DNA from: Vicinamibacterales bacterium
GTDB lineage: Bacteria; Acidobacteriota; Vicinamibacteria; Vicinamibacterales; 2-12-FULL-66-21
Direction: 5' to 3'
Assembly (NCBI GenBank): GCA_049642465.1
Contig: JBAROV010000088.1
Span: 38,616 to 102,615 of the forward strand
DNA: 64,000 bases
Position 1 is the first letter of the stretch; the number at the start of each line of letters is the position of its first letter. The notes under the pieces were generated by a model that was given only the letters and a program-made list of their open reading frames with translations, was not told the DNA's origin and did no database searches. Position numbers and translations under genes: made by a program. Positions 7,812-64,000 of this stretch are shown piece by piece.

Positions 7812-7819
7812 GTGATCCG

Positions 7820-41566: not shown

Positions 41567-41642
41567 TGACGACTGACGACTGACGACTGCAGACTGACGA
41601 TTGCATTGCGGATTGTCGATTGAGGATTGGATTGTCGATTAA
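41567..41642. repeat. GAYTGNN heptamer tandem-repeat element (GACTGAC GACTGAC GACTGCA GACTGAC GATTGCA ...)
   Basis: Read directly. Shares a 29-nt identical stretch (CTGACGACTGCAGACTGACGATTGCATTG) with the element at 58597..58712. Confidence 0.6.
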
Positions 41643-44081
41643 TCACTGGCTCCGAAGTGTTGCCATCGCGTCGACGCGTGTCGCTCGCCGGGCAGGCAAA
41701 TATGATGCAACCGCGGCAGTTGCCATCAACAGCAGCGCCGCGCCACCAATCGTCAACGGATCGAGAGGGTCGACTTCGAACAGCATGCCCCGTAGTAGAC
41801 GACTGGTCATCGTTGCCCCGATCAGTCCGATCGTCGCGCCGAGACCGGCCAGCCGGACGGCCTCGGCCAGCACGAAACGACGTACGCGACTCGCCGTAGC
41901 TCCCAAGGCGAGCCGCACGGCAATTTCGCGATCTCGCTGGCGCACATACGCCGCCATCACCGCATAGAGGCCAACCGTCACTAATAACAGCGCCGAGACG
42001 CCAAAGATGGTGAGGAGGAACGCGGTGAACCGGGGGCGCGCGAGCGGAGGACCGAGGAGTTCGGTCAACGGCACCACTCGCATGACTCGCACGGCGGGAT
42101 CGACGGCCTCGATTCGCTCGCGGCCGGCCGGACCCACAAGTTCGATTGGCGCGGTGGTTCTGAGAACGAGCGTCGTGGCTGTCATTTGAAACTGCGCCGC
42201 AGGGAGATAGAGCGTCGAGCGCGGGCTCGTGAGTTCGCGATAGCGCGTGGGTGCGGCGACGCCGACGATCGTGTACCACGGGTCTCGGGAGTTCGGGCGG
42301 CCCATCGTCAGCCGCTTACCGAGCGGGTCCTGCCCGGGCCACGTCCGTGCCGCAACATCTTCACTGACGATCGCGACCGGCAAGGCGCCGGCGCGATCGG
42401 CTGACGTAAACGGCCGTCCGCGCACAACCGCGACCTCGAACGTCTCGAAGTAGTTTGGATGCACGGACTCGAGGTCGAGCCACGGATTCACAGCAGCCTC
42501 CGCCTCACTCTGTCCGTCGGCCGCAAACCGTGGAAGGTCCCACCCCTGACCAGAGAATGGGGCGATGTTCACCGGCGTCGCAGCCACGGTGCCAGGGACA
42601 CGTGCGAGCTGAGCCATCACATCATCCAGAAACTGCGCGTGCGCACGAGGTTCGGAGTACTTCCCCTGCGGCAGATAAAGCTCAAACAGCACGAGACCGT
42701 CCGCGCGCAGTCCGAGGTTGACCGACTGCAACCTGAGAACACTTTGGATCAGCAGTCCCGCGCCTGCGACAATCGTCACGGCAAAACCGACTTGCGCGAC
42801 AACGAGTGACCGACGCCCATGCGTTGCGACCGAGCCGGCCGCGTCACCGCCCCCACCTCGCAGATGAGAGAACACGTCCGTTGGCAGGGACAGCAGCGCG
42901 GGTATGAGGCCGGCCAGGAGCGCCGTGACGAATACGACGGCAACCGAGAACAACACGACCATGGCGTCGATGCGGACCGACTCCACACGGGGTAAACCGT
43001 CGGGCACGAGGCTGATGAGGGCCTGGAGGCTCCACCAGACGGCTACAAATCCGACGATGCCGGCCTGCGCCGCGAGCACCAGGCTTTCGGCTAACACCTG
43101 CCGCACGATTCGGCCGCGTGCCGCCCCGAGTGCCAGGCGGACGGCGAGTTCCCGCCGACGCGCCTCGCCACGCATCAACAGAAGATTCGCCACATTGGCG
43201 CTGGCAATCAGCAGCACGACTGCGACAGCGGTGCAAAGCGCGTAGATCGGCGTCTGAATGTCGCCGACGACCGCGTCTGCGAAGGAGCGCACCACGGGAG
43301 TGAGCCCGCGAATCACACCGGGTGGCGCTTGCGAATCCAGCCGCTCGCTCAACGCACGGATTTCGCTCGTCGCCTGATCAAGCGTCGTTCCGCGTCGAAG
43401 CCTCGCAATGAGGTTGACCTCCCGGCGTGCGGCGTCCCCGAAGGGGCCGGTCGTCGGGACGGAGCTCGTCGTTCGCCACACTTCGACCCCAGCGGGGTAA
43501 TCGAGATCCGGTGGCATGACGCCGACAATCGTGAAGGGCTGTTCATCCAGACTCACACGACGGCCCAGAATGTCGTGTAATGCACCGTAGCGGCGTCGCC
43601 ACAGCCCACTGCTCAACACGATCACCCCCTCAGCCCCATCCTTGTCATCGGAACGGGTGAGCGCGCGCCCAAGCAGAGGCCGCACGCCCAGCACGTCGAA
43701 GAAGCCACCAGTGACGAGTGCAACGTCCGCATAACTCGAGACACCGTGATCGGCCATGACCGAGCGCCCGACGCCATTGCGCGTGACGCCGGCAGCGTTC
43801 TCGAGCAGTCGGCTCGCGTCTGCGACCGATTCGATCTCGGTATTGCCGAATGGATAGCGCGCCGAACCAGCAGATGAGAGCTCCTTCCACGCAACGATCA
43901 GACGGTCCTGCTCGTGCACGGGAAGCGGCCGAAGAAGCACGCCTTGAATCAGCGCGAACATCACGGTCGTGCCGGCAATGCCCAACGCGAGCGTCGCGAT
44001 CGCCGCTCCCGTGAAGGCCTTGGCGCGCCATAGACCGCGGCAGGCGAGACGAAAATCCTGGGTCACGCTTTCAAGGGTCAT
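41643..44081 (-). CDS. ADOP-family (MacB-like, duplicated FtsX) ABC transporter permease
   Basis: ATG at Met78 (MTLESVTQDFRLACRGLWRAKAFT, typical ADOP N-terminus). Two FtsX domains. ~810 aa. Confidence 0.85.
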   Translation of the reverse strand: MTLESVTQDFRLACRGLWRAKAFTGAAIATLALGIAGTTVMFALIQGVLLRPLPVHEQDRLIVAWKELSSAGSARYPFGNTEIESVADASRLLENAAGVTRNGVGRSVMADHGVSSYADVALVTGGFFDVLGVRPLLGRALTRSDDKDGAEGVIVLSSGLWRRRYGALHDILGRRVSLDEQPFTIVGVMPPDLDYPAGVEVWRTTSSVPTTGPFGDAARREVNLIARLRRGTTLDQATSEIRALSERLDSQAPPGVIRGLTPVVRSFADAVVGDIQTPIYALCTAVAVVLLIASANVANLLLMRGEARRRELAVRLALGAARGRIVRQVLAESLVLAAQAGIVGFVAVWWSLQALISLVPDGLPRVESVRIDAMVVLFSVAVVFVTALLAGLIPALLSLPTDVFSHLRGGGGDAAGSVATHGRRSLVVAQVGFAVTIVAGAGLLIQSVLRLQSVNLGLRADGLVLFELYLPQGKYSEPRAHAQFLDDVMAQLARVPGTVAATPVNIAPFSGQGWDLPRFAADGQSEAEAAVNPWLDLESVHPNYFETFEVAVVRGRPFTSADRAGALPVAIVSEDVAARTWPGQDPLGKRLTMGRPNSRDPWYTIVGVAAPTRYRELTSPRSTLYLPAAQFQMTATTLVLRTTAPIELVGPAGRERIEAVDPAVRVMRVVPLTELLGPPLARPRFTAFLLTIFGVSALLLVTVGLYAVMAAYVRQRDREIAVRLALGATASRVRRFVLAEAVRLAGLGATIGLIGATMTSRLLRGMLFEVDPLDPLTIGGAALLLMATAAVASYLPARRATRVDAMATLRSQ

Positions 44082-44100
44082 GGGATTCTCAATCGGGTCT

Positions 44101-45489
44101 TCAGCGGCGTCGGCCGCGCCGTCGGCCGCTGCGATCTCCGACCGGACCTCCACCACCGGGACCACGACTCCTGCCTGGTGGACGACTCTCGCGGTGAGGA
44201 TGACCGGAAGGCCTGGCGTCTCGCCCAGGGCCCGCGACGGGGCGCCGGGCGGCGGCGGAGCGTCTGGCCGCGTTGAGCTCGGCGCGCGCACGATCCTCGC
44301 GTTTGCGCGCACGGATCTCCGCGAGACGCTGGGGCAGCGGAATCTCGAGCCGCTGCTTCGGTTGCGCAGCGTAGTCGAAATCCGGCACCGTTACACGCGG
44401 CAAGCGTTTGCCGATCGCGCGTTCGATTGCCCGGAGATCGCCTTCCTCTTCGGAGGAGACGAACGTGAACGCCTCACCCTTCGCCTCCGCGCGACCTGTC
44501 CGGCCGACGCGGTGGATGTAGTCGTCTGGCGCGCGCGGCACATCGAAATTCACGACATGCCCGAGCTCGCTGACGTCGATGCCACGCGCCGCGATGTCGG
44601 TCGCGACCAGCACCGGGAACGTACCATTCTTAAACCCCGCCAACGCAGCAGTCCGCTGGGATTGCGAGCGATTGCCGTGAATTCGCTCGGCGCGGACGCC
44701 GGCCCGCACGAGAAAATCCGCGAGTCGGTTGGCGCGGTGCTTCGTGCGCGTGAAGATCAGCGCCTGGTTGATCGTCCTGTCACGCAGGAGGTGGACGATC
44801 AGTGCGGACTTCAGAGGCGACGGGACAGGATACACGGCGTGCGTAATGCCCGAAGCCGGCGCAGCCTGACGCTGGGTCTGAATCGAGACTGGATGGCGCA
44901 GCATGTCGCCTGCCAGCGCGACAATCGGCGGCGGCATCGTCGCGCTGAAGAAAAGCGTTTGCCGCCGGGCGGGGAGCCTGGCCACGATGCGGCGCACCTC
45001 CGGGAGAAAACCCATGTCGAGCATTCGATCCGCTTCGTCCAGGACCAGGTGCTCGATGTGATTCAGCTTCGCGTAGGGCGAGCGCATGTGGTCGATCAGG
45101 CGCCCGGGTGTCGCGATGATGATGTCCACGGCGCTGCGGAATGCATGCTCCTGCGGCCCCATGCCAACGCCACCGTAAACGGCTGCGCCGGTGATCGGCG
45201 TGTGCACGGACAGGGCGCTGAAGTCCTCGAGAATCTGTGCCGCCAGCTCCCGAGTGGGCACTAGAACGAGCGCCTTCGTCGTTCTGCGCGGTCGGCCGAT
45301 GAGGCGATTGATGATCGGCAGCAGGAAGGCGGCGGTCTTGCCGCTGCCAGTTTGCGCGCACGCGATCACGTCGCGACCTTCGAGCGCAGGTGGAATCGCT
45401 TCGGCCTGCACCGCAGTGGGGCGGACGAATCCGAGCTCTTTGATGGCCCTGACAAGGGCCGGATGCAGGTTCAAAGCGCTGAAAGGCAC
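44101..45489 (-). CDS. DEAD-box ATP-dependent RNA helicase with RG-rich C-terminal tail
   Basis: Q-motif, AQTGSGKT, PTRELA, DEAD, SAT, HRVGRTGR motifs all present. GTG start. Confidence 0.9.
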   Translation of the reverse strand: MPFSALNLHPALVRAIKELGFVRPTAVQAEAIPPALEGRDVIACAQTGSGKTAAFLLPIINRLIGRPRRTTKALVLVPTRELAAQILEDFSALSVHTPITGAAVYGGVGMGPQEHAFRSAVDIIIATPGRLIDHMRSPYAKLNHIEHLVLDEADRMLDMGFLPEVRRIVARLPARRQTLFFSATMPPPIVALAGDMLRHPVSIQTQRQAAPASGITHAVYPVPSPLKSALIVHLLRDRTINQALIFTRTKHRANRLADFLVRAGVRAERIHGNRSQSQRTAALAGFKNGTFPVLVATDIAARGIDVSELGHVVNFDVPRAPDDYIHRVGRTGRAEAKGEAFTFVSSEEEGDLRAIERAIGKRLPRVTVPDFDYAAQPKQRLEIPLPQRLAEIRARKREDRARAELNAARRSAAARRPVAGPGRDARPSGHPHRESRPPGRSRGPGGGGPVGDRSGRRRGRRR

Positions 45490-45517
45490 ACCCTATTATG
45501 TGTCGCGCCGATCGGAC

Positions 45518-48250
45518 TCACTTCTGGAGCCGGGGCGGCTCCGTCATCCAGACGTTGCCGGTGTGTTCCCCCAGGTTGAAGATGATCTTGTCGCGCGCGA
45601 CCGCGATATCGGGCGCTCCGAGGTAGAGGTTCTTCCAGGACAGCCCCCTGCCGTGGAAGTGCTGAATGCCGATGGGAATCCCGACTGGCCGCTTCGTCGA
45701 TGAGTCGACGCGTTGTGCCCACAAGCACGGAGAGCCGTCCCGATCCGACCAGAAGTACAGCACATTGGCCAGTGGCGACCAGGCCGGCGCGTCGCCGTCC
45801 TGACTGACGACAATCCAGTCCTTTTCGCTCGATACCACGGACCTGTCCACCTTCGCGACGAGTATCCGCGCGGGGGATAGTCTGTCCGTCCTGCCGTTGA
45901 ATGCGATCCAGCCCCCATCGGAACTGAAGCGCGGACTGTAAATGCCATAGCCCGGGTGACTCAGCCACGCGTCGTTGTGAGAACCACCAATCGTCAGCAG
46001 GCCGACACCCGACGCGTCCCGCGGAGTCACGTACAAGATTCGAGTCCCATCGGGCGACCAATCCTCCACCTGGCCACAGTGATCGCACACCTGCTCAGGT
46101 GTTCCTCCACCTGCCGCGACCACGAAGATGGGCATCCTTTCGTTTTGCGGAAACGAGTACGCCACGCGGGTCCCGTCACGACTGATTGCCGGATAGTGAT
46201 CTTCGGTCAGTCTGGTGAGCACGGTCTCGCCGCTGGTTCCGAAGGTCTTCAGCACCACGGCGAACCGGCCGGCGCGACGCGAGCGGAACACTAGCCTCGT
46301 GCCGTCGTCTGATAGCGTCGGGTCGTAATCATCGGCTGCGTCCTCGGTCACACGCTTCAGCGGTCCCCCGACCTTGGCCCGGTTCGCGTCGATCGGCAGG
46401 CTCCAGATATCAGCCCCAATCGTGCGACTGACGAACACCAGGCGGCCATCGGACGTCACGGAGGCAGCCGCTTCGTCTGTCGTACCAAACGTCGCCCGTT
46501 GTGGCGCGCCGCTCAGTTGCCAGCGGTCCGGGGAGATGGCGACCTGCCAGATGTTGGAGGAGTCGCCAACATTGGCGTGAAAGAGAATCCGGTTTCCCGT
46601 TGAGTCCCACGCATCGGGAAACGGCAGGCCCTGGAACGCCCGGAATCGTTCCCGCAGAAGAACGGCGCGGGCCCTGACAGGAACGGGCGTTCCCCCCGGA
46701 ACCGCCGCCACATACCAGTCGATGTTGTTTTCCGGCGGCGCGTCGCGCTGGCGCTGCGCCCAGAACAGCAGAGAGCGTCCGTCCGGCGACCAGACGTGTG
46801 CCTGAGTCCGATGGAAATCTGGCGCGACCGCCGTGGGTGGACCACCCGCGGCCGGAGCCACATAAATCCGGCCGCCCCCGTGTTCCGCGACGCCGTACGC
46901 GATCCAGCTTCCGTCCGGGGAAAAACGCGGCGAAAACCCTCGCGCCGCGAGCAACCTTTCTTCACCACCAAACGTCGGCACAACATAGATACCGCCGCCG
47001 AGCCGGCTGGATCGAAATGCGATTCTGCTTCCATCCGCCGAAAACGCCGGCTCGACATCGTCGGCCGCCTGACGCGTCAGCCGGAGCGGCGGACCATCTG
47101 GAAGCTGCTGGACCCAGATATCGAGGTTCCCCTCGCCGCTGCGGTCAGAGGCGTATGCGAGCATCTTCCCGTCGAGCGAGACAGCCGGGTAATCGGTCCA
47201 ACCAGCATCGGACGTGAGCTTGGTCAGGATTGGTGTCGATGCGACGGGCGATGCTGCCCGACTGATCCGCCACCACGCCGCGAGCAGCACCCCGACGACG
47301 ATCGTCAGCGCCGCTGCCAGGAGCTGCATTCTCCGGCGAGCCGTCGGAGCCGCGGCACGCGCGACACCGGGACGCGCATCGGATTCCTCCTGGAGATCCT
47401 CGAGCGCAACCTTCAGGTCGGCCATCGACTGCCACCGCCGCGCGGGGTCTTTGCGGAGACAGCGGACGATCAACTTCTCGAGATCGCGCGCCAGGCCGGG
47501 AACATGACGGCTCGGTTGTTCCGGGTCTGTCGTCAGGACGGCCGCCAGCGTGGACATCCTCGTCTCACCGCTGAACGCACGGCGGCCCGTGATCATTTCA
47601 TAGAGCACCACACCAAACGAGAAAATATCCGATCGCGCGTCTGCCGCCTTCCCTTCGGCCTGTTCAGGCGACATGTATGCCGCCGTGCCGAGAACGGTCC
47701 CTTCCTCCGTCTGCACGGCCGCCTCGCTGCGGCCGGTTTCCGTCCGGACGCGTTCATCGACCGACTTGAAGCCCGCCGATTCCGTCAGCTTCGCGAGTCC
47801 GAAATCGAGGACTTTGATCGACCCCTGGTCGCTGACCATGATGTTGGCCGGCTTCAGATCACGATGGAGGATCCCCGCGCCATGCGCGGCCGCCAGCGCG
47901 TCAGCGATCTGGACGGCGTATTTGAGCGTCTCGCCGATCCGCAACCTGTTCTGCGCGATCGCCAGGGCGAGAGATCGCCCCGCGACGTACTCCATGGCGA
48001 TGAAGTCGCCATCGCTCTCCCGCCCAATCTCGTAGATCGTGACGATGTGGGGATGATTCAGGGCGGAGGCGGCTCGCGCCTCCTGCACGAAGCGCTTCCG
48101 ATTCTCGGCGGAAATCGATCCGTCATTGCGGAGCAGTTTGACAGCGACGGGCCGGCCGAGGCGCGTGTCGAAGGCGCGGTACACGACCCCCATGCCGCCT
48201 TCACCAAGCGGGGCCAGGATCTCGTAATGAGAGATCATCCTTGCGGTCAT
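45518..48250 (-). CDS. Eukaryotic-like Ser/Thr protein kinase fused to TolB-like (WD40-like) beta-propeller repeats
   Basis: GEGGMGVVYRA, VAVK, HRDLKPAN, DFGLAK. Central TM helix. C-terminal repeated SPDG/SxDG TolB-type blades. ATG at Met20 (alt. Met24 at 48238). Confidence 0.85.
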   Translation of the reverse strand: MTARMISHYEILAPLGEGGMGVVYRAFDTRLGRPVAVKLLRNDGSISAENRKRFVQEARAASALNHPHIVTIYEIGRESDGDFIAMEYVAGRSLALAIAQNRLRIGETLKYAVQIADALAAAHGAGILHRDLKPANIMVSDQGSIKVLDFGLAKLTESAGFKSVDERVRTETGRSEAAVQTEEGTVLGTAAYMSPEQAEGKAADARSDIFSFGVVLYEMITGRRAFSGETRMSTLAAVLTTDPEQPSRHVPGLARDLEKLIVRCLRKDPARRWQSMADLKVALEDLQEESDARPGVARAAAPTARRRMQLLAAALTIVVGVLLAAWWRISRAASPVASTPILTKLTSDAGWTDYPAVSLDGKMLAYASDRSGEGNLDIWVQQLPDGPPLRLTRQAADDVEPAFSADGSRIAFRSSRLGGGIYVVPTFGGEERLLAARGFSPRFSPDGSWIAYGVAEHGGGRIYVAPAAGGPPTAVAPDFHRTQAHVWSPDGRSLLFWAQRQRDAPPENNIDWYVAAVPGGTPVPVRARAVLLRERFRAFQGLPFPDAWDSTGNRILFHANVGDSSNIWQVAISPDRWQLSGAPQRATFGTTDEAAASVTSDGRLVFVSRTIGADIWSLPIDANRAKVGGPLKRVTEDAADDYDPTLSDDGTRLVFRSRRAGRFAVVLKTFGTSGETVLTRLTEDHYPAISRDGTRVAYSFPQNERMPIFVVAAGGGTPEQVCDHCGQVEDWSPDGTRILYVTPRDASGVGLLTIGGSHNDAWLSHPGYGIYSPRFSSDGGWIAFNGRTDRLSPARILVAKVDRSVVSSEKDWIVVSQDGDAPAWSPLANVLYFWSDRDGSPCLWAQRVDSSTKRPVGIPIGIQHFHGRGLSWKNLYLGAPDIAVARDKIIFNLGEHTGNVWMTEPPRLQK

Positions 48251-48303
48251 CGGGGGGACTGCTCGAGTCGACGCAAGCTTACGATGAACTGACAAGCCCG
48301 GGC

Positions 48304-49062
48304 TCACTGTTTCGGCAGCGATTTGATTTCGCTCCTCATCCTGTCGCGGCGATCGAGGATGGCTCGAATCTCGTTTTCAGCCAGCCACGCACCGAGCGCA
48401 GCGTCGAGCTGTTTTTGTGTCAGGCCGTCCATCCTGGCCCAGCACGCTTCATCGATTCGGGTCATCTTGTGGTGGAGCTCGAGGCCGGGGCCGAAGGCGC
48501 GTGAATGGTCGATCAGAATGAGGTTCCAACTGCTGTCGCGCAGCATGTTTGCAAGGTTTCTGTCGGCGTTGCCGATGAGATTGTCGAACATGGCCATTCG
48601 CACCCGTTGCGCGTCCCACGCCGCCACTTGCGATTCACCCGGTGACTCCTTGCCCGTGCCATCGACGACGTTCTCGACCCACAACTGGGCGGCGCCATCG
48701 ACGCCTTGCATCTGCCGAGCGACGGTCGGCGGAACCATGTCCAGCTTCAGGAGCTTGTCGAGCTCGTAGGCGGCGATCTCCGTTTTATAGCGCTCGCGGA
48801 AACCCCGGTAAGCTCCAGAGGGCCGCGCTCTCCACGCGATCCTGGCCGCGGGCCCGCCCGGCCGCAGGGTGCAGCGCGTCAAGTTGGTTTTCGGAAACAC
48901 GTCAATGCTCGCGCACTCGGCGGTCCTGAGATAGTCCTCGAATTCCTGGTGGTGGCCGATCCAGATCTTGGAGCCAGGCGTTTCGGTGGCGGCGGGTGGC
49001 TGCTGACCGAGAAGGCCAGCCACGCACAACAGAACTGCGACGACGATCCACAGTCGACTCAT
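48304..49062 (-). CDS. Secreted hypothetical protein with atypical-kinase-like (PI3/4K- or HipA-like) catalytic-loop motif
   Basis: Signal peptide. NLIGNADRNLANML (GxxDRHxxN-like with His->Asn) followed by LILIDHSRAFG (DFG-like). Confidence 0.5.
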   Translation of the reverse strand: MSRLWIVVAVLLCVAGLLGQQPPAATETPGSKIWIGHHQEFEDYLRTAECASIDVFPKTNLTRCTLRPGGPAARIAWRARPSGAYRGFRERYKTEIAAYELDKLLKLDMVPPTVARQMQGVDGAAQLWVENVVDGTGKESPGESQVAAWDAQRVRMAMFDNLIGNADRNLANMLRDSSWNLILIDHSRAFGPGLELHHKMTRIDEACWARMDGLTQKQLDAALGAWLAENEIRAILDRRDRMRSEIKSLPKQ

Positions 49063-49150
49063 GAATCCCCCTGTGCGAATATACGTCGCAGTGGATCGCG
49101 GCGTCCTCGCCGACTTCTCATGAAACCCTAATCATTTCGAAAATCCTGCA

Positions 49151-49801
49151 ATGCGTCTCGTCTTCGGAGAATGCGAGTTCGACGGCGGCCGGCGCGTGCT
49201 TCTGCGCCACGGAAGCGTCAGACCGCTCTCGCCCAAGGCTTTCCAGGTACTGGAGCTTTTGCTCGAGCGACGCCCGGAGGCTGTGACGAAGACGGAGCTC
49301 CTCGAGCGTCTCTGGCCGGACGCGTTCGTCTCGGACGCGAGCCTGCACAACGTCATCGCAGAAATCCGCGCTGCGCTGGGCGATGCCCCACGGGCGGCCC
49401 GGTTCATCCGAACGGTCGCGCGCTATGGATACGCGTTTCATGGTGATGCGCGGATCACGCCCGCCGTCGAAACGTGGAAAAGTGCCGTCCCCGGTCCGCG
49501 ACTCGCGTCGGGAGAACACGAGTGGCTGCTCGCCGAAGGTCCGAACCTGGTGGGAAGGGGCGCCGACTGCAGCGTTCGGATCGACTCCGCCACTCTTTCG
49601 CGCCACCACGCGCGAATCGTCCTGGCGAACGGGGAAGCCACGATCGAGGATTTGGGGAGCAAGAACGGAACGGTCGTCAACGGACACGACGTCAAACACC
49701 CACTCGTGCTCAAGGAGAACGACCGCATCCAGGTTGGCGCCGTCACGGTGACGTACCGCGTCATGGCGTCCCTGCCGTCGACACTTACCCGGCGTCAGTG
49801 A
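49151..49801 (+). CDS. Transcriptional regulator: OmpR/PhoB-type winged-helix DNA-binding domain + C-terminal FHA domain
   Basis: N-terminal trans_reg_C-like (LSPKAFQVLELLLERRPEAVTKTELLERLW...RFIRTVARYGYAF). C-terminal FHA (LVGRGADCSVRIDSATLSRHHARIV...GSKNGTVVNG). Confidence 0.8.
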   Translation: MRLVFGECEFDGGRRVLLRHGSVRPLSPKAFQVLELLLERRPEAVTKTELLERLWPDAFVSDASLHNVIAEIRAALGDAPRAARFIRTVARYGYAFHGDARITPAVETWKSAVPGPRLASGEHEWLLAEGPNLVGRGADCSVRIDSATLSRHHARIVLANGEATIEDLGSKNGTVVNGHDVKHPLVLKENDRIQVGAVTVTYRVMASLPSTLTRRQ

Positions 49802-49804
49802 ACG

Positions 49805-49955
49805 ACATCAACAATCCACAATCCAATCAACAATCCACAATCCAATCAACAATCCCTAATCGAATCGACAATCCTCAATTCAATCGACGATCCTCAATCA
49901 ACGCCATCGTCACTCGTCAGTCCTCAATCTGCAATTGACCGCAATCAACGATCAT
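49805..49955. repeat. NNCAATC heptamer tandem-repeat element (reverse orientation of the GAYTGNN family), ~21 units
   Basis: Read directly. Fills the whole convergent intergenic space between the FHA regulator and the Gfo/Idh/MocA gene. Confidence 0.6.
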
Positions 49956-51298: not shown

Positions 51299-51345
51299 AT
51301 CACTCCTTCTCGTTTTTGCCCTCGTCTTCGATCCAGAATACGCGA

Positions 51346-54300
51346 ATGCTGGTGGCCCGGCCCTGCGCCTTTCTGGTCCTGGCCATCGCTGTGCTCACAG
51401 GCTACATCGGGGCGGCCGAAAAAATACCACCCGCCACCGGCCGTGTCGACTTCGATCGCCAGATCCGCCCGCTGCTCTCGGATCGCTGCTTCCGCTGCCA
51501 TGGCCCGGACGCCTCGAAGCGCGAGGCCAAGCTTCGACTCGACTTGCGCGAGGGCGCGTTCAAGAAACTGAACGCCGGCTGGGCCGTCGTCAAGCCCGGC
51601 GATCCCGCCAGGAGCGAACTCGTACGCCGGATCTCCTCGGAGGATCTCGAGGAGATGATGCCGCCCCCGAAGTCAAACCTGTCATTAACGGACGACGAGA
51701 AAGCGTTGCTCGTACGCTGGGTCGCCGAGGGCGCCGAGTACCGGCCGCACTGGTCGCTGGCGCCTGTGGTCAGCCGGCCTGCGCCGGTCCTCCGTGGCGG
51801 AGCGGTCGCAACCAATCCCATCGATGCGTTCGTCCGTGCGCGTTTGGACCAGGAGGGACTCCCGCCGGCGCCGCGGGCATCGCCCGAAGTCCTCATCCGG
51901 CGTCTCGCGTTTAACCTGACCGGTCTTCCGCCGACATTCGGTGAGATCGACGCATTGCTCGCAGATCAATCGCCCGGCGCCTACGAGCGCGCCGTCGACG
52001 GCTATCTGGCGTCGCCAGCCTATGGCGAGCGTATGGCGATGGACTGGCTGGATCTCGCACGCTATGCGGATACCTACGGATATCAGGCTGACGTCGACCG
52101 TGACATGTCCCCGTACCGCGATTGGGTCATCTCGGCATTCAATCGAAATCTTCGTTACGACGAATTCCTGACCTGGCAGCTCGCCGGCGACTTGCTGCCG
52201 AACCCCACGCGCGTGCAGCGCATTGCCACCGCATTCAATCGCCTGCACCGGCAGACCAACGAGGGCGGCAGCATCGAAGAGGAGTTCCGAACCGAGTACG
52301 TCGTCGATCGCGTGAATACGTTTGGAACGTCGATGCTCGGCTTGACCGTGGAATGCGCCCGCTGCCACGACCATCGGTTCGATCCGATTACTCAGCGCGA
52401 CTACTATTCGCTCTTCGCGTTCTTCAACAACATCGACGAGTCTGGACTCTACTCGCATTTCACGAATGCGACGCCGAGCCCCTCGCTGCTGCTTTGGCCG
52501 CCTGACAAGGAGGAGCAACACCGCCAACTCTCGGCGCAGATGCGGACGATCGAGGCGGAACTTCGAGCGTCGGCGCGATCGGCCCGCCGCGCCTTCAGCG
52601 CACAACCGAAGGACGCCACGATCCAGCCTCCGGCGCCTATCGCGCACCTGCCGTTCGACGCGGTGGCTGGGGAGACGACGCCCGACACCGTGGCGAAACA
52701 AGCCGCGCAACTGAAGGACGGCCCTCTGTTGCAAAATCGCGCGCTCCGATTCAGCGGCGACAACTCGGTGGTCCATCCAGGCGTCAAGACATTCGGGCGG
52801 ACGAATCAGTTCTCGGCGGCGCTGCGCCTCCAACCCACCGAGCGCCAGGATCGCGCGGTCGTTCTGCACCAGTCCCGCGCGTGGTCCGACGCCGGCAGCC
52901 GGGGTTTCGAGCTGACGCTCGATCATGGTCGTCCCTTCGTCGGGCTCATCCACTTCTGGCCTGGCAATGCGATCGCCGTCCGCGCGCGGCAACCGTTGCC
53001 CCTCAATGCGTGGTCCCAACTCGTGGTGACCTACGATGGATCCAGCCGGGCCGCAGGCATCCGGATCTACTTGAACGGGCAAGCGCTCGAGACAGAGGTC
53101 GTTCGGGATCGGTTGTACAAGGACATCACCTACAACCGCACGGCGGGCGACAACGTCCCCGAGCAGCCGCGATTGACGATCGGCGCGCGCTTTCGTGACA
53201 GCGGATTCAAGAACGGCCTGATCGACGACCTGCAGATCTTCGACACCGCGCTGACTGACGCCGAAGTTGGAGTGATGGCCGGCCGCGCGCCCCGCAGCGA
53301 CGCCCTGTTCGATCATTTCCTTACCCGCACCTACCAACCGTACCTGTCCACGCTGGCGCACCTCACTCGCCTTCGGAACGCTGAAAACACGCTCATTGCC
53401 GGCATCCCGGAAATCATGGTGATGGAGGAGATGCCGACCCCTCGTCGGGCTCATCGGCTCGAGCGCGGCGCCTACGATGCGTCCCGTGAAATCGTGCCGC
53501 GCGACACGCCGGCCAGCCTGCCGCCGTTTTCAGCAGGCCAGCCGCGCAACCGGCTCGGCTTGGCGCGCTGGCTCACCGACCGACGGAATCCGCTCGCGGC
53601 TCGCGTCGTCGTCAACCGCATCTGGCGAATGCACTTCGGCCGCGGCATCGTCGCGACCCAGGAGGACTTCGGCAGCCAGGGCAGATTGCCGACGCACCCG
53701 GAGCTGCTCGACTTTCTCGCGGTGCACTTCATGGAGAGTGGCTGGGACGTGAAGGCGCTGCACCGCCTGATCGTGACGTCTGAGACCTTTCAACAGTCGT
53801 CGCTCATCGCGGCGGACGCCAGCGCCCGCGATCCAGACAACCAGCTGCTCGCACGCGGCCCGAAGCAACGACTGATCGCCGAGTCAATTCGCGACAGCGC
53901 GCTCGCCGCGAGCGGCCTGCTCGATCGCACGATCGGTGGTCCGAGCGTCAAGCCGTATCAACCGGCCGGCCTGTGGGAGCAGTCTGGCACGGGCAAGACC
54001 TACAAGCAGGACACCGGCAGCAGTCTCTACCGCCGCAGCCTGTACACCTTCTGGCGGCGTACCTCGCCACCGCCCTCGATGCTCACCTTCGACGCCATGT
54101 CTCGAGAGGTCTGCACCGCGAAGCGCGATGTGACGACGACACCGCTGCAATCACTCGTTCTGCTGAACGACCCGCAGTTCGTCGAGGCCGCGCGGCGGCT
54201 GGCCGAGAACCTGATCAAACGATTTCCAGACGATCGATTTTCACGAAACCGCGCCGCCTTCCGTGCGCTGATTGGCCGCGCTCCCGACGAAGTTGAGTCC

Positions 54301-54486
54301 CGGATTCTCTCCAGGATGTTCGACGAGCAACGAACGCTCTTCGCACGGCACACCGACGACGCGGGGAAGTTGCTGGACGTCGGGGAGTCGGAATGGGACA
54401 AGGCGCTCCCGAGCGTCGAGCTCGCGGCCCTGACGACGGTGGTAAGCGCGATCATGAACCTCGAGGAATTCGTGGTGCTGCGATGA
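51346..54486 (+). CDS. PSCyt1/PSCyt2/PSD1 (DUF1549-DUF1553) multi-domain protein (Planctomycete-type cytochrome C domains, LamG-like central domain)
   Basis: ATG at 51346 with signal peptide. CFRCHGPDASKREAKLRLD (PSCyt1). CARCHDHRFDPITQRDYY (DUF1549). C-terminal DUF1553-like region. Confidence 0.9.
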   Translation: MLVARPCAFLVLAIAVLTGYIGAAEKIPPATGRVDFDRQIRPLLSDRCFRCHGPDASKREAKLRLDLREGAFKKLNAGWAVVKPGDPARSELVRRISSEDLEEMMPPPKSNLSLTDDEKALLVRWVAEGAEYRPHWSLAPVVSRPAPVLRGGAVATNPIDAFVRARLDQEGLPPAPRASPEVLIRRLAFNLTGLPPTFGEIDALLADQSPGAYERAVDGYLASPAYGERMAMDWLDLARYADTYGYQADVDRDMSPYRDWVISAFNRNLRYDEFLTWQLAGDLLPNPTRVQRIATAFNRLHRQTNEGGSIEEEFRTEYVVDRVNTFGTSMLGLTVECARCHDHRFDPITQRDYYSLFAFFNNIDESGLYSHFTNATPSPSLLLWPPDKEEQHRQLSAQMRTIEAELRASARSARRAFSAQPKDATIQPPAPIAHLPFDAVAGETTPDTVAKQAAQLKDGPLLQNRALRFSGDNSVVHPGVKTFGRTNQFSAALRLQPTERQDRAVVLHQSRAWSDAGSRGFELTLDHGRPFVGLIHFWPGNAIAVRARQPLPLNAWSQLVVTYDGSSRAAGIRIYLNGQALETEVVRDRLYKDITYNRTAGDNVPEQPRLTIGARFRDSGFKNGLIDDLQIFDTALTDAEVGVMAGRAPRSDALFDHFLTRTYQPYLSTLAHLTRLRNAENTLIAGIPEIMVMEEMPTPRRAHRLERGAYDASREIVPRDTPASLPPFSAGQPRNRLGLARWLTDRRNPLAARVVVNRIWRMHFGRGIVATQEDFGSQGRLPTHPELLDFLAVHFMESGWDVKALHRLIVTSETFQQSSLIAADASARDPDNQLLARGPKQRLIAESIRDSALAASGLLDRTIGGPSVKPYQPAGLWEQSGTGKTYKQDTGSSLYRRSLYTFWRRTSPPPSMLTFDAMSREVCTAKRDVTTTPLQSLVLLNDPQFVEAARRLAENLIKRFPDDRFSRNRAAFRALIGRAPDEVESRILSRMFDEQRTLFARHTDDAGKLLDVGESEWDKALPSVELAALTTVVSAIMNLEEFVVLR

Positions 54487-54634
54487 CGAGACCGTTATGT
54501 GACTCCTCGGCAGAATCCTGCTCTCGTTGCCGCATAACGGCGGCGCGCAAGGCACGCCTGCGACGGAGCGGAGCGGGGCATGGGGCTCCCGCGAGCGACG
54601 GAGTCGGGGTCCGGGGCAGCGCCCCGGTTAAGCA

Positions 54635-56101
54635 ATGAGCGACTGCCACAAGTGCGTGGGTGCGCTGCCGCTTGCCGGCATGTCCCGGCGGGAGGTCCTG
54701 AATCGCTTTGGAATGGGCCTGGGCGGCATCGCGCTGGCCAACTTGATCAATCCCGTCGGACTTCGTGCTTCGGCCCAGACGCCGCAGGACCGTGGCGTTC
54801 TCCAGGGTCAGTTCCATGTCCGGCCGAAGGCCAAGCGAGTGATCTACCTGTTCATGGCCGGCGGGCCGTCGCAGATGGAGACGTTCGACTACAAGCCGGT
54901 CCTCAACGAGCGGAACGGCGAGCAGTTGCCTGACTCCGTGCGGCAGGGGCAGCGGCTCACCGGCATGTCCGGCAACCAGTCGTCCCTGCCGCTCGCCGGA
55001 TCGCAGTTTGGCTTCAGCCGTCACGGCGCCCACGGCACCTGGGTCAGCAACCTGCTGCCGCACACCGCCAGGATCGTGGACGAGCTATGTATCGTCCGCT
55101 CGATGTGTACCGACGCGATCAACCACGACCCGGCGATTACGTTCTTCCAGAGCGGATCGCAGATCGCCGGCCGGCCGAGCATGGGAGCGTGGATTCACTA
55201 CGGGCTGGGCAGCGACAACGAGGATCTTCCCGCGTTTGTCGTGCTCATCACGCCGGGCAAAGTCGATCAGCCTTTGTACTCGCGCCTGTGGGGCAGCGGG
55301 TTCCTGCCGTCGCAACACCAGGGCGTACAGTTTCGGAGCGGCACGGATGCCGTGCTCTATCTCAGCAATCCTGAGGGGATCTCACGCGACAGCCGCCGGC
55401 TGCTCCTGGATCGCCTGAGAGATCTGCACACACACTCCGCCGAGCGGCTCGGCGAGAACCTGGACGGCCGAATCGCGCAGTACGAAATGTCCTACCGGAT
55501 GCAGGCCAGTGTCCCTGGCGTCATGGACGTGTCGAACGAAACAGAGGAGACCTTCGAGCTCTATGGCAAAGACTCACGCAAGCCCGGCACATTTGCCGCC
55601 AATTGCCTGCTGGCGCGCCGTCTCGCGGAGCGGGGCGTCAAATTCGTGCAGCTCTATCACCAGGGATGGGATCAGCACGAGAATCTGCCCCGTGACATCG
55701 AACGGCAGTGCCGCGAGACCGATCAGGCGAGCGCCGCGCTCGTCATCGACTTGAAGCGGCGGGGCCTTCTCGACGACACGCTCGTCGTCTGGGGCGGCGA
55801 GTTCGGCCGGACCAGCTACTCGCAAGGCAAGCTGACGTCAAGCAACTACGGCCGCGACCATCACCCGCGTTGCTTCACCGTGTGGATGGCTGGCGGTGGG
55901 GTCAAACGCGGACTCGTCTACGGTGCGACTGACGACTTCAGCTACAACGTGACCGAGGGGTCTGTCCACGTGCACGACTTTCACGCGACGCTGCTGCACC
56001 TGCTGGGCATCGATCACGAGCGATTGACCTACTTCTATCAGGGCCGCCGATTCCGGCTCACCGACGTCCACGGCAAGGTCGTACTGGCGCTGCTCGCCTG
56101 A
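54635..56101 (+). CDS. DUF1501-family (sulfatase-fold) protein with Tat signal
   Basis: SRREVLNRFGMGLGGIALA twin-arginine. Typical DUF1501 length. Canonical partner of PSD1 proteins. Confidence 0.9.
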   Translation: MSDCHKCVGALPLAGMSRREVLNRFGMGLGGIALANLINPVGLRASAQTPQDRGVLQGQFHVRPKAKRVIYLFMAGGPSQMETFDYKPVLNERNGEQLPDSVRQGQRLTGMSGNQSSLPLAGSQFGFSRHGAHGTWVSNLLPHTARIVDELCIVRSMCTDAINHDPAITFFQSGSQIAGRPSMGAWIHYGLGSDNEDLPAFVVLITPGKVDQPLYSRLWGSGFLPSQHQGVQFRSGTDAVLYLSNPEGISRDSRRLLLDRLRDLHTHSAERLGENLDGRIAQYEMSYRMQASVPGVMDVSNETEETFELYGKDSRKPGTFAANCLLARRLAERGVKFVQLYHQGWDQHENLPRDIERQCRETDQASAALVIDLKRRGLLDDTLVVWGGEFGRTSYSQGKLTSSNYGRDHHPRCFTVWMAGGGVKRGLVYGATDDFSYNVTEGSVHVHDFHATLLHLLGIDHERLTYFYQGRRFRLTDVHGKVVLALLA

Positions 56102-56111
56102 GCGCGCGGGC

Positions 56112-56210
56112 TGAACTGCAGACTGGCGACTGCAATCGGCAATCGCCAATCCCAATTGGCAATCGTCAATCACCGCAATCGTCAGTCGTCAGTCCGCAAT
56201 CTGCAATCTG
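56112..56210. repeat. NNCAATC / GTCAGTC heptamer tandem-repeat element between the DUF1501 stop and the tRNA-Val 3-prime end
   Basis: Read directly (GACTGCA ATCGGCA ATCGCCA ATCCCAA TTGGCA ATCGTCA ATCACCG CAATCGT CAGTCGT CAGTCCG CAATCTG CAATCTG). Confidence 0.6.
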
Positions 56211-56215
56211 GGGAG

Positions 56216-56288
56216 TGGGCGGTACAGGACTCGAACCTGTGACACTCGGCGTGTAAAGCCGATGCTCTACCAACTGAGCTAACCGCCC
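56216..56288 (-). tRNA. tRNA-Val (anticodon TAC)
   Basis: Manual fold of the reverse complement: 7-bp acceptor GGGCGGT/ACCGCCC, D-arm GCTC/GAGC, anticodon stem TCGGC/GCCGA with loop TTTACAC, T-arm ACAGG-TTCGAGT-CCTGT. CCA not encoded. Confidence 0.9.
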
Positions 56289-56413
56289 GCCTTCGCGGCC
56301 TATCTTTGCAGAGGACGCTGCGGCGGGTAAACCCGCAGGCCCGCTGCCTGCACCATCTTCGCACAGTGCGCGCGACGACGGCGAGTTCGCCCCGACGCGC
56401 GCTGACGACCCGC

Positions 56414-58372
56414 TTACCGTTTCGGTGGCACGTCATGCGGCCGCTGAAAGGCCCGCAGGAACCCCATGACTCCGGCGGAGATCGCACCGGCGGAAGCATT
56501 CGATCCTGTCACCAGGATGTCTGGCACGAAACGGTTCGCGCTCTTCACCAGCTCCGAAATAACGTTAACGAGTGCCGTTGTCTCGGCGCCCAGCGCTTCC
56601 TTCTGCGCCTCGAACCCTTTCGCCCGCGCCAGGCCGACCGCCTCGATTTCCGCGCCACGCGCGCGGCCTGTCTGCTCGATGTAGGTGGCCTCGCCGTCGG
56701 CTTCCGCCTTCCGCGCGCGCGAGCGGTTCTCTTTGATTGTGATGTCTACCTCGGATCCGGCGAGGTCGCGCTGCTTGTCCGCAAGACCCGTTTGCTTCTC
56801 CATGGCAATACGATTGAGCTGCGCTTCCTTCTGCGCCGTAAATGTCGCTTTTTCTTGATTCGCGATCTCGCGCTGCGTCAGGACCGTGACGATCTCCTCT
56901 GGCAGGATGACGTCCTGGATGTACACGCCGCGCGTTTCCACGTTGTACTTGCGGATCTGCTCGGTGATGTATGCCTGCGCCTGCGTCTGCACGGCGGCGC
57001 GGTTTTCAATGAACTGCACCGCCGCCATCCCCTGCAGCGTGTCGCGGAAATAGTTGCCGACGACGGCCTGCAGCACCTCGTTGACGAGATTCTGCATCGT
57101 CCCGACCATCGAGATGACCTTGGGCGCGAGCTTGTCCGCAACGTGGATCTGGACTTGTAGATCGATGTTGAAGACGAATCCTTCCTTCGACTTCGCGACG
57201 ATCTGCTTCAGTGCCTTGTCCAGCGTGTGCGCCTGTGACGAAGCCTCCGCCCAGTTGAGCGTGAGGATCGCCGTCGGGACCATCTCCGCCTGATAGATGC
57301 GCGGATTGATCGCGTACTTGCCCGTGCGAAGCGGCTCCTCCCAGATACCGCGGTGGCCTGGATGGACGATCGAGCCGAACTTGAACTCATCGCCGGAGAC
57401 ATCCTCCGTTGGCAGACCCACCGCCGCCTTGATGACGGCCACCTCGCCTTGTTTGACGACGAGCATCGGCACCGTCTCGACGTGCACGAGATACGGATTG
57501 AGCGCGTACGACCCGTAGAGCAGCGGATCGTGCTGCAAGCCGATCCGGCCGCCGGCGTCGAGGAACTTCTGGTAATCCTGGTAGTTGTTGTGTCGCTCGT
57601 TCTGGTTGCCGATGAGCACGTCAGCGATCTCGCCGTCGCTGCGTCTCTCCGCCTCCATCTTCTTCACATCGTCGAACCGGCCCAAACGGCACGCGATATC
57701 GCCCGAGGGCAGCGGCTCGCCTTCGAGGGTCTCGACGATGCCGACCATGTCGATCGTCTTCTCGACGCTTGCCTCCTTCAGCCGGAGCGGCTCGATCACC
57801 TTCAGCGTGAGATCGTCAGCTTTCAAGCCGAAGAGAGCCGGACCGAACTTGCCGCGATATTCTTCGTTCACCGGCAGGCCGAAGCTGCGGCTTCGCGTCA
57901 GCACGAGAAACGCAACCGGATGCAGCGGCACGATCGCTCCAGGCGGTAGCACGGGACGCTGAACACCCTGTTGTCCGCCACGCTCGATGAAGCTGCGGAC
58001 ATCCGTGAACTGACCGAACTCACGTTTGTAGACGCCGGATTTCCAGCCGGTCGGCAGAGGCGCGCCGACCTGCGCGATGACAAGCCCAATCTCTCCCGTC
58101 GGAATCTGCACCCACGGGTGCTTCTCAACGCGATTCATCGGCCACCATCGGAGCGCGATACCAGGCATCAGCAGGTCGGCCTGATACCCGGCCTCGCCGC
58201 GAAGGGCGACAGGACTGTCTGACCGCTTTTGCCGGCCCCAACGCCTGATCACCAGTCCCACTTCGTTGGGGCCGATGCGGTGGATGGACATCACGACGAT
58301 CGGGAGAGACAGCAGGACCACCAGCGACAGACCGAGATAGATCCCGAACGTTAGCAGGGAGAAATCAAACAC
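56414..58372 (-). CDS. Flotillin-like SPFH (band-7) domain membrane protein
   Basis: N-terminal TM. SPFH core. C-terminal Ala/Glu-rich coiled-coil (flotillin EA repeats). Confidence 0.85.
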   Translation of the reverse strand: MFDFSLLTFGIYLGLSLVVLLSLPIVVMSIHRIGPNEVGLVIRRWGRQKRSDSPVALRGEAGYQADLLMPGIALRWWPMNRVEKHPWVQIPTGEIGLVIAQVGAPLPTGWKSGVYKREFGQFTDVRSFIERGGQQGVQRPVLPPGAIVPLHPVAFLVLTRSRSFGLPVNEEYRGKFGPALFGLKADDLTLKVIEPLRLKEASVEKTIDMVGIVETLEGEPLPSGDIACRLGRFDDVKKMEAERRSDGEIADVLIGNQNERHNNYQDYQKFLDAGGRIGLQHDPLLYGSYALNPYLVHVETVPMLVVKQGEVAVIKAAVGLPTEDVSGDEFKFGSIVHPGHRGIWEEPLRTGKYAINPRIYQAEMVPTAILTLNWAEASSQAHTLDKALKQIVAKSKEGFVFNIDLQVQIHVADKLAPKVISMVGTMQNLVNEVLQAVVGNYFRDTLQGMAAVQFIENRAAVQTQAQAYITEQIRKYNVETRGVYIQDVILPEEIVTVLTQREIANQEKATFTAQKEAQLNRIAMEKQTGLADKQRDLAGSEVDITIKENRSRARKAEADGEATYIEQTGRARGAEIEAVGLARAKGFEAQKEALGAETTALVNVISELVKSANRFVPDILVTGSNASAGAISAGVMGFLRAFQRPHDVPPKR

Positions 58373-58596
58373 GGTGGGCCTCCAAGTGCCGGCGGGGTTA
58401 GCTGACGGGCTCGAGGTTGGAGTTCCTCTATTCCGCGTCCCGTTGAAGGAGCCGCGAAAATTCGCCCCGTGGCGCGGTCATCGCGCCGGTGGTTCCCCCG
58501 CGGCGCCGATTGACGACGCCTTAGGCTAACTATTCAATATAGGCCTTTCCGCGCGGAATGCAACTCACCCGACCGATACGGAACGAGAGACAGTGT

Positions 58597-58712
58597 CGAC
58601 TGACGACTGCAGACTGACGATTGCATTGACTGCGGATTGACGATTGGATTGTCGATTGACGATTGCATTGTTGACTGACGATTGCACTGTTGATTGGCGA
58701 ATGAATCAACAT
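58597..58712. repeat. GAYTGNN heptamer tandem-repeat element (homologous to 41567..41642)
   Basis: Read directly. In divergent intergenic region between the flotillin-like gene and padR. Confidence 0.6.
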
Positions 58713-59195
58713 TGCTCGATCTGATGACCCGCGCGAGGCAAGGCGCGACGTGGTTCAACGGTCTCGAGGAGGCGGGCTCGCCTGCCCAGACGAAGCTCGC
58801 CCGAAGGGCGACCAAGTTGGCGGGGTCGACGGGACTCGCGGTCGAGCGCCGTCCAGCCGCGGCACCACATTCATACTCACCTTCTCAAAGACCGCCTTCG
58901 CAAAGTCGGCTAAAACACAATCCGGGTTCGTCATCGAGCCGACGAGCGACGGTTGGGAAACCGCACACAACACAAGTGCGACCACCGCAAGCTCGGCTGT
59001 CGCGGTGCCGTCGGATAAACCGTTCGCACTCGGACGCACCCGTCCCGAGATCGAACATCGCAGCGATCCTCTGGATTCCACGAACTGCACCAATTCAGCA
59101 GATTTCAACGGACCTGTCGTTGGCCGTGTACTTGCGACTCGAACCTCCTATGGCTTCCCCACAAGAACGCCGCGATACTCGTTTGGGAAAGCAAT

Positions 59196-63851: not shown

Positions 63852-63928
<77 letters not shown>

Positions 63929-64000
63929 GATGCTGAACGAAGAATCGCCGAGCGCAGAGTGCAGATTCGCAGATTGGATTGTCAGACCAGCCCGCTATTC

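Follow-up and report, generated by a model that had tools for sequence, protein, structure and literature searches.

What are the runs of degenerate GAYTGNN heptamers that recur between genes in a Vicinamibacterales genome, and why do they resemble one another? The question is raised by a stretch of 64,000 nucleotides of contig JBAROV010000088.1 (positions 38,616 to 102,615; hereafter the window, with coordinates counted from its first nucleotide), in which an earlier reading of the letters alone (the original prediction) had described an interspersed family of such arrays. Among the long simple repeats in the large genomes of free-living bacteria, those with heptanucleotide units are the most over-represented, and to our knowledge neither their origin nor their role has become known more than 30 years after their discovery. 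The present analysis shows that the arrays of the window form a dispersed, homologous and polar family, located strictly at gene boundaries and subject to fast gain and loss of units. Our preferred interpretation, to which we assign a probability of about 0.6, is that they are copies of a lineage-specific, slippage-expanded family within the heptanucleotide class.

Arrays in the window

The window carries four main arrays and one fragment, all between genes. Clusters of GAYTG or its complement CARTC (at least four motifs, with gaps of at most 12 nt) occur four times in it and not once in 100 first-order Markov shuffles, so the four main loci listed earlier are real. Read on the plus strand, arrays A (41567-41642) and D (58598-58712) consist of GAYTGNN, and array B (49805-49951) and the main array of locus C (56133-56208) of its complement. 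These orientations had been given correctly for A, B and D; at locus C an extra short arm in the plus orientation (56116-56132) makes a small inverted pair of what had been described as a reverse-oriented array. There are five arrays per 64 kb and further multiple loci in related contigs. The previously proposed density of about one per 12 kb is misleading, as the distribution is not uniform: the four main arrays and the fragment, which lies near a tRNA-Asp gene, all fall within the last 23 kb of the window. The arrays are flanked by Pfam-supported genes or tRNAs, and the related loci are likewise intergenic; gene calls for both sets thus agree with the claim that the arrays are strictly intergenic and mostly abut stop codons.

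A conserved head and a 19-bp tail unit

Parsing into units revealed that the arrays are polar, with a head at the 5' end of the G-rich strand and a variable GATTGNN tail after it, an organization missing from the original prediction, as were the 19-bp unit, the paired hairpin form and the link to known heptanucleotide repeats described below. The conserved head, approximately 28 to 35 nt long, reads (ATTGAC) GACTGAC GACTGCA GACTGAC GATTGCA and is completed by an irregular 5-nt unit, YTGNN (TTGCG, TTGTT, CTGTT etc.). Its outer boundary, at ATTGAC/ATTGCA, is sharp. Arrays A and D share 32 identical nt across the head (CGACTGACGACTGCAGACTGACGATTGCATTG), a length that shuffling the order of the units reached in 0.15% of trials (P~0.0015); this identity had been recognized before, although its length had been put at 29 nt. 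The remaining pairs of window arrays have shared stretches no longer than those of the unit-shuffle control, a result that is given for four of the six comparisons between pairs.

The tails are only partly described by the 7-bp period assigned to them before. When pooled over 21 arrays of the lineage, identity was 0.57 at lag 7, 0.41 at lag 14 and 0.23 at lag 21, compared with 0.63 at lag 19, 0.56 at lag 26 and 0.53 at lag 38. Because identity is highest at lag 19, the repeating unit is taken to be 19 bp long with three GATTG cores (7+7+5 or 7+12). Tandem Repeats Finder (TRF) reported periods of 7, 14 and 19 in the window, the 19-bp period being dominant in B, D and most related arrays. Within a unit the core is conserved and the 2-nt spacer is variable; likewise, the 7+7+5 architecture is kept across loci and the spacer bases vary from locus to locus. 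Arrays range in length from about 45 to more than 300 bp, and their tails, as read from the sequences, are rich in GGA. The G strand contains 34% G and 13% C (47% G+C, versus 63% G+C for the genome).

Several familiar structures were excluded for these arrays, namely CRISPR, G-quadruplexes, intrinsic terminators and Rfam families. In A to D, units of 5 to 12 nt are directly adjacent without spacers, and the earlier statement that these are not CRISPRs therefore stands. The window arrays hold at most isolated GGG and never four consecutive runs of three or more G, so G-quadruplex formation does not apply to them. A covariance search with Rfam 15 matched no family to the arrays and returned only tRNAs, a c-di-AMP riboswitch and one sub-threshold intragenic match.

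Distribution of the family

Related arrays were collected from metagenomes with a search pattern built on a module that the window arrays have in common; this pattern forces 19 head bases. The scan yielded 40 stretches from related soil contigs, approximately 27 of which are arrays, representing about 14 distinct intergenic loci with unrelated flanks. The head is shared in them well past the bases forced by the pattern. Partner arrays (the opposite members of inverted pairs, not selected by the pattern) carry head variants as well, with the junction 12-mer at nt 26-28 in four of six. The head core is also identical on contig L148, a contig syntenic with the window whose orthologous coding DNA shows just 70% nucleotide identity. 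The presence of the head at many unrelated sites, together with the unit order common to A and D, upholds the original view that the arrays are homologous copies and not chance microsatellites.

In a collection of species-representative genomes, a degenerate four-unit GAYTGNN pattern was found at at least 120 loci, compared with a chance expectation of about 17 by our own arithmetic. The matches listed came from Acidobacteriota, Planctomycetota, Chloroflexota, Bacteroidota, Gemmatimonadota, Xanthomonadales and heterocystous cyanobacteria, and included classical units (GACTGGG, GACTGTT) of the short tandemly repeated repetitive (STRR) sequences of Nostoc, Calothrix and Dolichospermum. No piece of the head was present in any of the 120 matches listed, and the long arrays of other phyla among them had a plain 7/14/21 period and lacked the 19-bp unit. 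In viral contigs (IMG/VR) the head gave no match; scans of these contigs with the GAYTG core and with a permuted core gave at least 120 matches each, the permuted core being a weak control as GTCAGTC is the reverse complement of GACTGAC. Our literature search turned up neither this unit series nor a head/tail organization or a 19-bp unit, and no account of such repeats for Acidobacteriota. Judged by these sequence comparisons, the head and the 19-bp unit are the features shown to be lineage specific. An order of GACTG before GATTG was also considered as a general polarity rule and was rejected, since it holds in only one of ten informative arrays of other phyla.

Turnover between relatives

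Relatives, named Acidobacteriota or Vicinamibacterales in their sources, were graded by their orthologues of the Gfo/Idh/MocA oxidoreductase (Gfo) gene next to array B; all the sequences compared are metagenome assemblies of repeats. The contig L121 (Gfo 97% identical in protein sequence, about 95% nucleotide identity) is fully syntenic with the window. Array B is present in both and differs by one whole 19-bp unit, and variants have spread to adjacent units separately in each lineage, GATTGTG being found twice in the window and GATTGAG three times in L121. Five to six cores of array B are broken in the window (GATCG, GAGTG, GATGG etc.) and intact in L121. Array C has a 42-bp internal deletion in L121. 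No array follows the Gfo stop codon in relatives whose Gfo proteins are 92%, 88% and 87% identical. The orthologous spacer between a kinase gene and a DEAD-box helicase gene measures 28 nt in the window and holds a paired element of about 300 bp in L148. At one locus followed across samples, differences of 14 and 38 bp were seen, with the two arms changing independently. Presence/absence polymorphism among relatives, a check suggested at the outset, was thus found at the array B site, in the kinase-helicase spacer and as unit indels.

A segment of about 240 bp carrying tRNA-Val(TAC) (window 56169-56430) is absent at positions 780-800 of L121, and its boundary lies inside array C. The segment could truly have been gained or lost at the repeat, or the assembly could have collapsed there.

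Paired arrays and their orientation

At many related loci, two arrays are arranged tail-to-tail with their heads outward against the flanking genes, giving a long imperfect palindrome. The two arms of one pair are not copies of each other, and their heads differ. Such paired arrays are predicted to fold into hairpins of 100-300 nt with energies of -99 to -165 kcal/mol (z of -9 to -13.5 versus dinucleotide shuffles). Locus C is an inverted pair in miniature, in which the short arm pairs with 56183-56194 in the predicted fold; this small pair is weak (z of -2.7 and -3.8). Arrays A, B and D have no inverted partner and their units are direct repeats. No significant RNA fold was predicted for A (z of -1.1 and -0.3), and B and D gave a weak signal on the GAUUG strand only, the C strand of B being unstructured (z of -0.2).

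In about 15 arrays the head adjoins a co-oriented gene at its 3' end, 12 of these heads lying within 13 nt of the gene end, and in about nine it adjoins a divergent gene at its 5' end; these counts come from a codon-model gene caller, with two entries (a tRNA and the L121 Gfo gene) set by hand. Several heads overlap the 3' end of the gene, in that the TGA of GACTGAC or GATTGAC is the stop codon. The geometry of a single array is automatic (what is true for one neighbor is false for the other), and only the order of arms within pairs is therefore informative. Among the matches listed, the G-rich arm preceded the C-rich arm in 22 of 24 inverted pairs (arms at most 150 bp apart) of the genome set and in 13 of 17 of the independent viral-collection set, 35 of 41 in total. 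This order spans many phyla and is not tied to the lineage of the window. Of the 63 frames on the G strand, 57 are closed and the first stop is reached after a median of 21 nt; of the 63 on the C strand, 54 are open through the whole array. This is in line with how G-rich heptamers are reported to be placed in Xanthomonas and Nostoc (PMC4692102).

Between 41 and 60 kb of the window, no canonical terminators were found at gene ends; terminator-like sites numbered 14 versus 12.5 expected from shuffles, and none of them lay on an array. At positions 1745-1950 of another contig, L162, a canonical, bidirectional terminator-like hairpin (AAGAAAGGGCGGCACGGCCGCCCTTTCTT) is enclosed by an arm reading GACTGAT GACTGAC GATTGCG and by the inverted partner of that arm. 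This arrangement suggests that arrays can grow around a pre-existing terminator.

Individual arrays and their neighbors

Neighbors were called with Pfam (genes), ARAGORN (tRNAs) and Rfam (riboswitch), and they are those named in the original prediction. On the plus strand, the head of array A (41567-41610) parses as TGAC GACTGAC GACTGAC GACTGCA GACTGAC GATTGCA TTGCG and its tail (41611-41642) as GATTGTC GATTGAG GATTG GATTGTC GATTAA. On one side, the array begins 24-28 nt from the GTG start (41542) of a minus-strand Ser/Thr kinase-TPR gene, in keeping with the distance of about 25 bp noted before; on the other side, it touches the TGA stop (41643-41645) of a minus-strand gene for an ADOP-type MacB_PCD/FtsX permease (Pfam). 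A weak sigma-70-like match on the minus strand (41579-41551, TCGTCA-17-TATCAT) has its -35 hexamer within the array A head, a short distance upstream of where the kinase gene starts. A promoter in this head was not relied on, because sigma-70-like matches in the region are as numerous as expected from shuffles.

Array B lies on the minus strand between convergent genes. Its degenerate head (49900-49946; unit parsing and alignment with L121) reads GATTGCGGTCAATTGCA GATTGAG GACTGAC GAGTGAC GATGGCG TT and begins 5 nt past the TGA stop (49952-49954) of the minus-strand Gfo gene. The tail (49805-49899), made of 19-bp units of GATTGTT GATTG GATTGTG and variants (TRF period 19, 4.9 copies, 86%), ends 3 nt from the stop (49801) of a plus-strand FHA/Trans_reg_C regulator gene.

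At locus C, the short plus-strand arm (56116-56132, CTGCA GACTGGC GACTG) is inverted relative to the main array and is located 14 nt beyond the stop codon (56101) of a DUF1501 gene. The main array (56133-56208, minus strand) runs GATTGCA GATTGCG GACTGAC GACTGAC GATTGCG ... GATTGCC GATTG and starts at most 7 nt from the 3' end of a minus-strand tRNA-Val (56215-56288). A match to the COG3860 RNA family at 54168-54216 on the plus strand (27.2 bits versus a gathering score of 42.5, E of 0.012), inside a PSCyt/DUF1553 gene, is the sub-threshold Rfam hit mentioned above and is probably due to chance.

The plus-strand head of array D (58598-58634) reads GACTGAC GACTGCA GACTGAC GATTGCATT GACTGCG, and its tail (58635-58712, plus strand) is built of 19-bp units of the GATTGAC GATTGCATTGTT type (TRF period 19, 3.5 copies, 87%), terminating in a small TGTTGATT...AATCAACA inverted repeat. 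The array occupies a divergent region, 5' of a plus-strand open reading frame (ORF; 58750-59199) and a PadR-ADOP permease operon, and approximately 60 nt upstream of the 5' end of a minus-strand c-di-AMP riboswitch. The riboswitch (ydaO/yuaA-type, 58375-58537, minus strand; 60.7 bits versus a gathering score of 38 in Rfam) leads a gene for a 652-residue SPFH/Band 7 protein (56414-58372). A possible promoter located upstream of the riboswitch, TTGCAT-16-TATATT, is uncertain and shares sequence with the Rfam match.

The short fragment proposed upstream of tRNA-Asp is also real. It covers 63953-63985 on the plus strand, comprises four degenerate units (GAGTGCA GATTCGCA GATTG GATTGTC) and is located about 25 nt upstream of the minus-strand tRNA-Asp (63852-63928).

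Other repeat families in the window and in relatives

The repeats near position 7820, formerly counted as relatives of the GAYTG arrays, are not. They consist of two 35-nt copies on the plus strand (7817-7891; 89% identical, spaced at 40 nt) with a CTGACGCNTGTCAG mini-palindrome and TCGCTGG heptamers; that is, they share the heptamer class with the GAYTG arrays and differ in unit and family. They lie between convergent sulfatase genes (6429-7811, plus; 8018-9562, minus), the G-rich strand following the stop of the plus-strand gene.

A very strong predicted hairpin occurs in tandem at positions 2440-2772, between two plus-strand ORFs (1684-2445 and 2770-4239), as two copies of 171 bp that are 89% identical and have minimum free energies of -186 and -195 kcal/mol (z of -20 and -16). 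The left arm of the hairpin is an array of CAGGAGAT octamers, and the right arm repeats their complement, ATCTCCTG. The architecture is that of the paired heptamer arrays, with the G-rich arm first and another unit, one that resembles the Shine-Dalgarno or anti-Shine-Dalgarno sequence.

The relative L124 (Gfo 83% identical, 69% G+C) has at least five NGCACGT arrays, one directly after the Gfo stop. These arrays (9012-9083, 11356-11431, 13380-13445 and 20660-20790) stand directly 3' of the stops of at least four genes including Gfo; with the further families AGCGGGA, GCACCCA and TTCTGAC, nine arrays are found in 21 kb of this contig. L122 and L123 (Gfo 87%) carry upstream of Gfo an octamer-array hairpin, with five copies of GGTTCTCG facing five of GAGAACCT. 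After the Gfo stop, at the site of array B, a 26-bp palindromic unit (GGGGTCAGGCCGTGAA...) is present in duplicate in L123, and in L122 the site is taken by a smaller hairpin rich in GC (coordinates of these elements: L122 9795-9890; L123 9861-9897 and 11349-11400).

Comparison with known repeats

By their sequence, the arrays are members of the known bacterial class of heptanucleotide tandem repeats, referred to as STRR sequences or long simple sequence repeats (LSSRs; units of 5-11 nt). The window arrays have tandem 7-nt units beyond chance, a non-coding location and copy-number variation between close relatives. They resemble the class also in being strongly intergenic, in several unit families per clade and, probably, in many dispersed arrays per genome, in their fast change of copy number, and in their presence in large, GC-rich genomes of free-living organisms. 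The ordered conserved head, the 19-bp (7+7+5) unit in place of a 7/14/21 period, the degenerate 2-nt spacer and the frequent tail-to-tail pairs set the window family apart. Described members of the class include the STRRs of Calothrix and Nostoc, the long SSRs of Mrazek, GGGAATC in Xanthomonas (PMC4692102) and TAACTGA in Beggiatoaceae (PMC4679880). According to the summary of Mrazek 2007 given in PMC4679880, heptamers are the commonest long SSRs in large GC-rich genomes. Regulatory effects of heptamer repeats have been suggested by a reporter study in Nostoc.

The GGGAATC and GGGGA(C/T)T heptamers of Xanthomonas and Nostoc (Rehm et al. 2015, PMC4692102) are similar in their non-coding excess, their inverted repeats and their length variation between close relatives. 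They are placed with the G-rich sequence on the coding strand after stops or on the non-coding strand before starts, and are under-represented between divergent genes. However, those repeats have G-runs, form G-quadruplexes and prefer four units, whereas the window arrays have 10-21 units and no series of G-runs. TAACTGA of marine Beggiatoaceae (MacGregor 2015, PMC4679880) is likewise an intergenic heptamer with an ACTGA core, located a few nt from gene boundaries and patchily distributed in a way that suggests spread. Its sets are uniform, number 2-6 copies and are mostly forward, directly upstream of start codons; the window family is longer, degenerate and mostly found after stops, with the complementary strand in front of starts. 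With a different unit and most heads following stop codons, the window arrays are not TAACTGA repeats.

Higher-order satellites such as centromeric alpha-satellite offer an analogy of dynamics only. Their monomers are also grouped into a locally homogenized unit, with older degenerate monomers at one edge and lineage-specific variants, but on a kilobase scale rather than 19 bp and in another kind of organism and position.

Repetitive extragenic palindromic (REP) sequences and bacterial interspersed mosaic elements (BIMEs) of enterobacteria and pseudomonads share the high-copy intergenic placement after stops or between operon genes and the composite hairpins. Protection of mRNA 3' ends and termination have been proposed as their roles. 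The paired arrays are predicted to fold comparably to REP/BIME composites, or more strongly. However, a REP is a single imperfect palindrome of 20-40 bp with a GTAG or CGTC tag, mobilized by a REP-associated tyrosine transposase (RAYT), whereas the window family has no tag and becomes palindromic only through two opposed arrays. No RAYT was noticed in the flanks examined.

Discussion

If the arrays are a slippage-expanded family, copies would have arisen by transfer of a founder head to many unrelated intergenic sites, and the tail would then grow and shrink by replication slippage or unequal recombination of 7-, 14- and 19-bp units; this process for the tail is suggested by the unit indels and the lineage-specific variants of adjacent units in near-identical genomes. 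The 7-bp unit is presumably not tolerated in coding sequence, which would confine arrays to gene boundaries. Because the G strand stops in nearly all frames, a gene running into it would be closed within about 21 nt, and the C strand is almost free of stops; such a constraint would favor the G-arm-first order on each strand. Paired copies may give rise to large RNA hairpins at transcript ends or between cistrons that serve termination, insulation or 3'-end protection, as in REP/BIME. We regard this role as tentative and on the whole doubtful. Where an array is single, as with A, B and D, it is probably a near-neutral spacer, rich in AT and skewed toward G.

Several points weigh against this interpretation. 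Its functional part is an inference. Three of the four window arrays are single, and as A has no significant fold and the signals of B and D are weak, the hairpin role cannot apply to them. Nor is the hairpin kept in exact form, since each arm in a pair varies in length independently of the other. As for the copying mechanism, no target-site duplication, transposase or phage copy was found (0 head matches in viral contigs). The related arrays, collected with a pattern that forces 19 head bases, were selected for bearing a head, and some of the differences in unit number could be assembly errors in the metagenomes. Finally, the stop-codon argument accounts for the orientation at 3' ends and not for the nine or so heads that face gene starts.

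Other explanations must be considered. The arrays could be transcript-end elements maintained by selection, acting as bidirectional terminators, insulators or REP/BIME-like 3'-end stabilizers where canonical hairpin-plus-U terminators are lacking. This notion gains from the heads within a few nt of stop codons, the very stable predicted hairpins of pairs, the 35:6 preponderance of the G-arm-first order across phyla among the matches listed, the canonical terminators not found at gene ends between 41 and 60 kb, the GC hairpin or different array that relatives have at the same post-stop site, and the terminator hairpin flanked by arrays in L162. Yet most window copies are single with weak or no predicted structure, arrays are gained and lost between close relatives, the cores of array B decay in the window, and about nine heads lie upstream of gene starts, with some arrays in divergent promoter regions; we consider selection of this kind possible but unlikely. 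A multivalent binding array, in which GAYTG cores in DNA or GAUUG/CAAUC cores in RNA bind a nucleoid protein, a transcription factor or a titrated or recruited RNA-binding protein, had already been put forward and would explain why the core is conserved next to a variable spacer and why a regular 19-bp unit holds three cores. The GGA of the tails is the core of CsrA-type sites, and binding partners yet to be named were proposed by those who described heptamer repeats in Beggiatoaceae and Nostoc. A GAYTG-specific reader is nevertheless improbable: close relatives use unrelated units at equivalent sites, window array B departs from L121 by 5-6 substitutions that break cores, recent duplication largely explains why cores are conserved, and no candidate protein was identified.

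A mobile origin was suggested early, as the relic of a small element, and the dispersed copies are loosely compatible with it. In its sharper form, the heads would be terminal inverted repeats of an element similar to a miniature inverted-repeat transposable element (MITE), with the transposase encoded elsewhere and the single arrays as broken halves. Paired heads are indeed inverted and outward-facing with a sharp outer boundary, copies are dispersed in genomes at 70% coding identity, and the kinase-helicase spacer is an orthologous site filled in L148 and empty in the window. Inspection of four pairs, however, revealed no target-site duplications or flanking direct repeats, length is hypervariable rather than fixed, neither arm of a pair is a copy of the other, single arrays are numerous, and the flanks examined contained no linked transposase, nor did viral contigs contain the head; a MITE-like element thus seems quite improbable. 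Still less credible is an independent origin, whereby each array slipped in place from a chance proto-repeat and the likeness reflects a small vocabulary of units favored by the polymerase. Such an origin would fit the prevalence of heptamers in large GC-rich genomes (Mrazek 2007, at least as summarized in PMC4679880), the four of six window-array pairs that stay within the shuffle control, and the quite different units of arrays in relatives. It is already disfavored and does not account for a series of four units in fixed order, followed by an irregular 5-nt unit, that recurs at some 14 unrelated sites and, with the same offset, in unselected partners, for the 32 nt common to A and D, or for a 7+7+5 architecture that recurs with differing spacer bases.

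We therefore retain the interpretation of a lineage-specific, slippage-expanded heptanucleotide family, which offers three testable handles: the head as a marker of copying, the recurrent 19-bp unit and the cross-phylum rule of pair orientation. More speculatively, and with rather low odds in our estimate, a founder of about 30 nt that, once copied to a gene boundary, builds up a satellite of its own would constitute a new, very small dispersing element. On that same speculative footing, the G-arm-first rule may reflect a general, orientation-dependent interaction with transcription or translation, e.g., a factor-independent insulator at gene ends where canonical terminators are lacking. The rule of pair order may itself be general. 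On the practical side, the arrays provide hypervariable markers for strain typing, and they cause assembly breaks and mis-set starts and stops in metagenome-assembled genomes. If it is true that paired arrays end or insulate transcripts, this would help to explain how gene boundaries are organized in Acidobacteriota and in other soil phyla in which canonical terminators are scarce.

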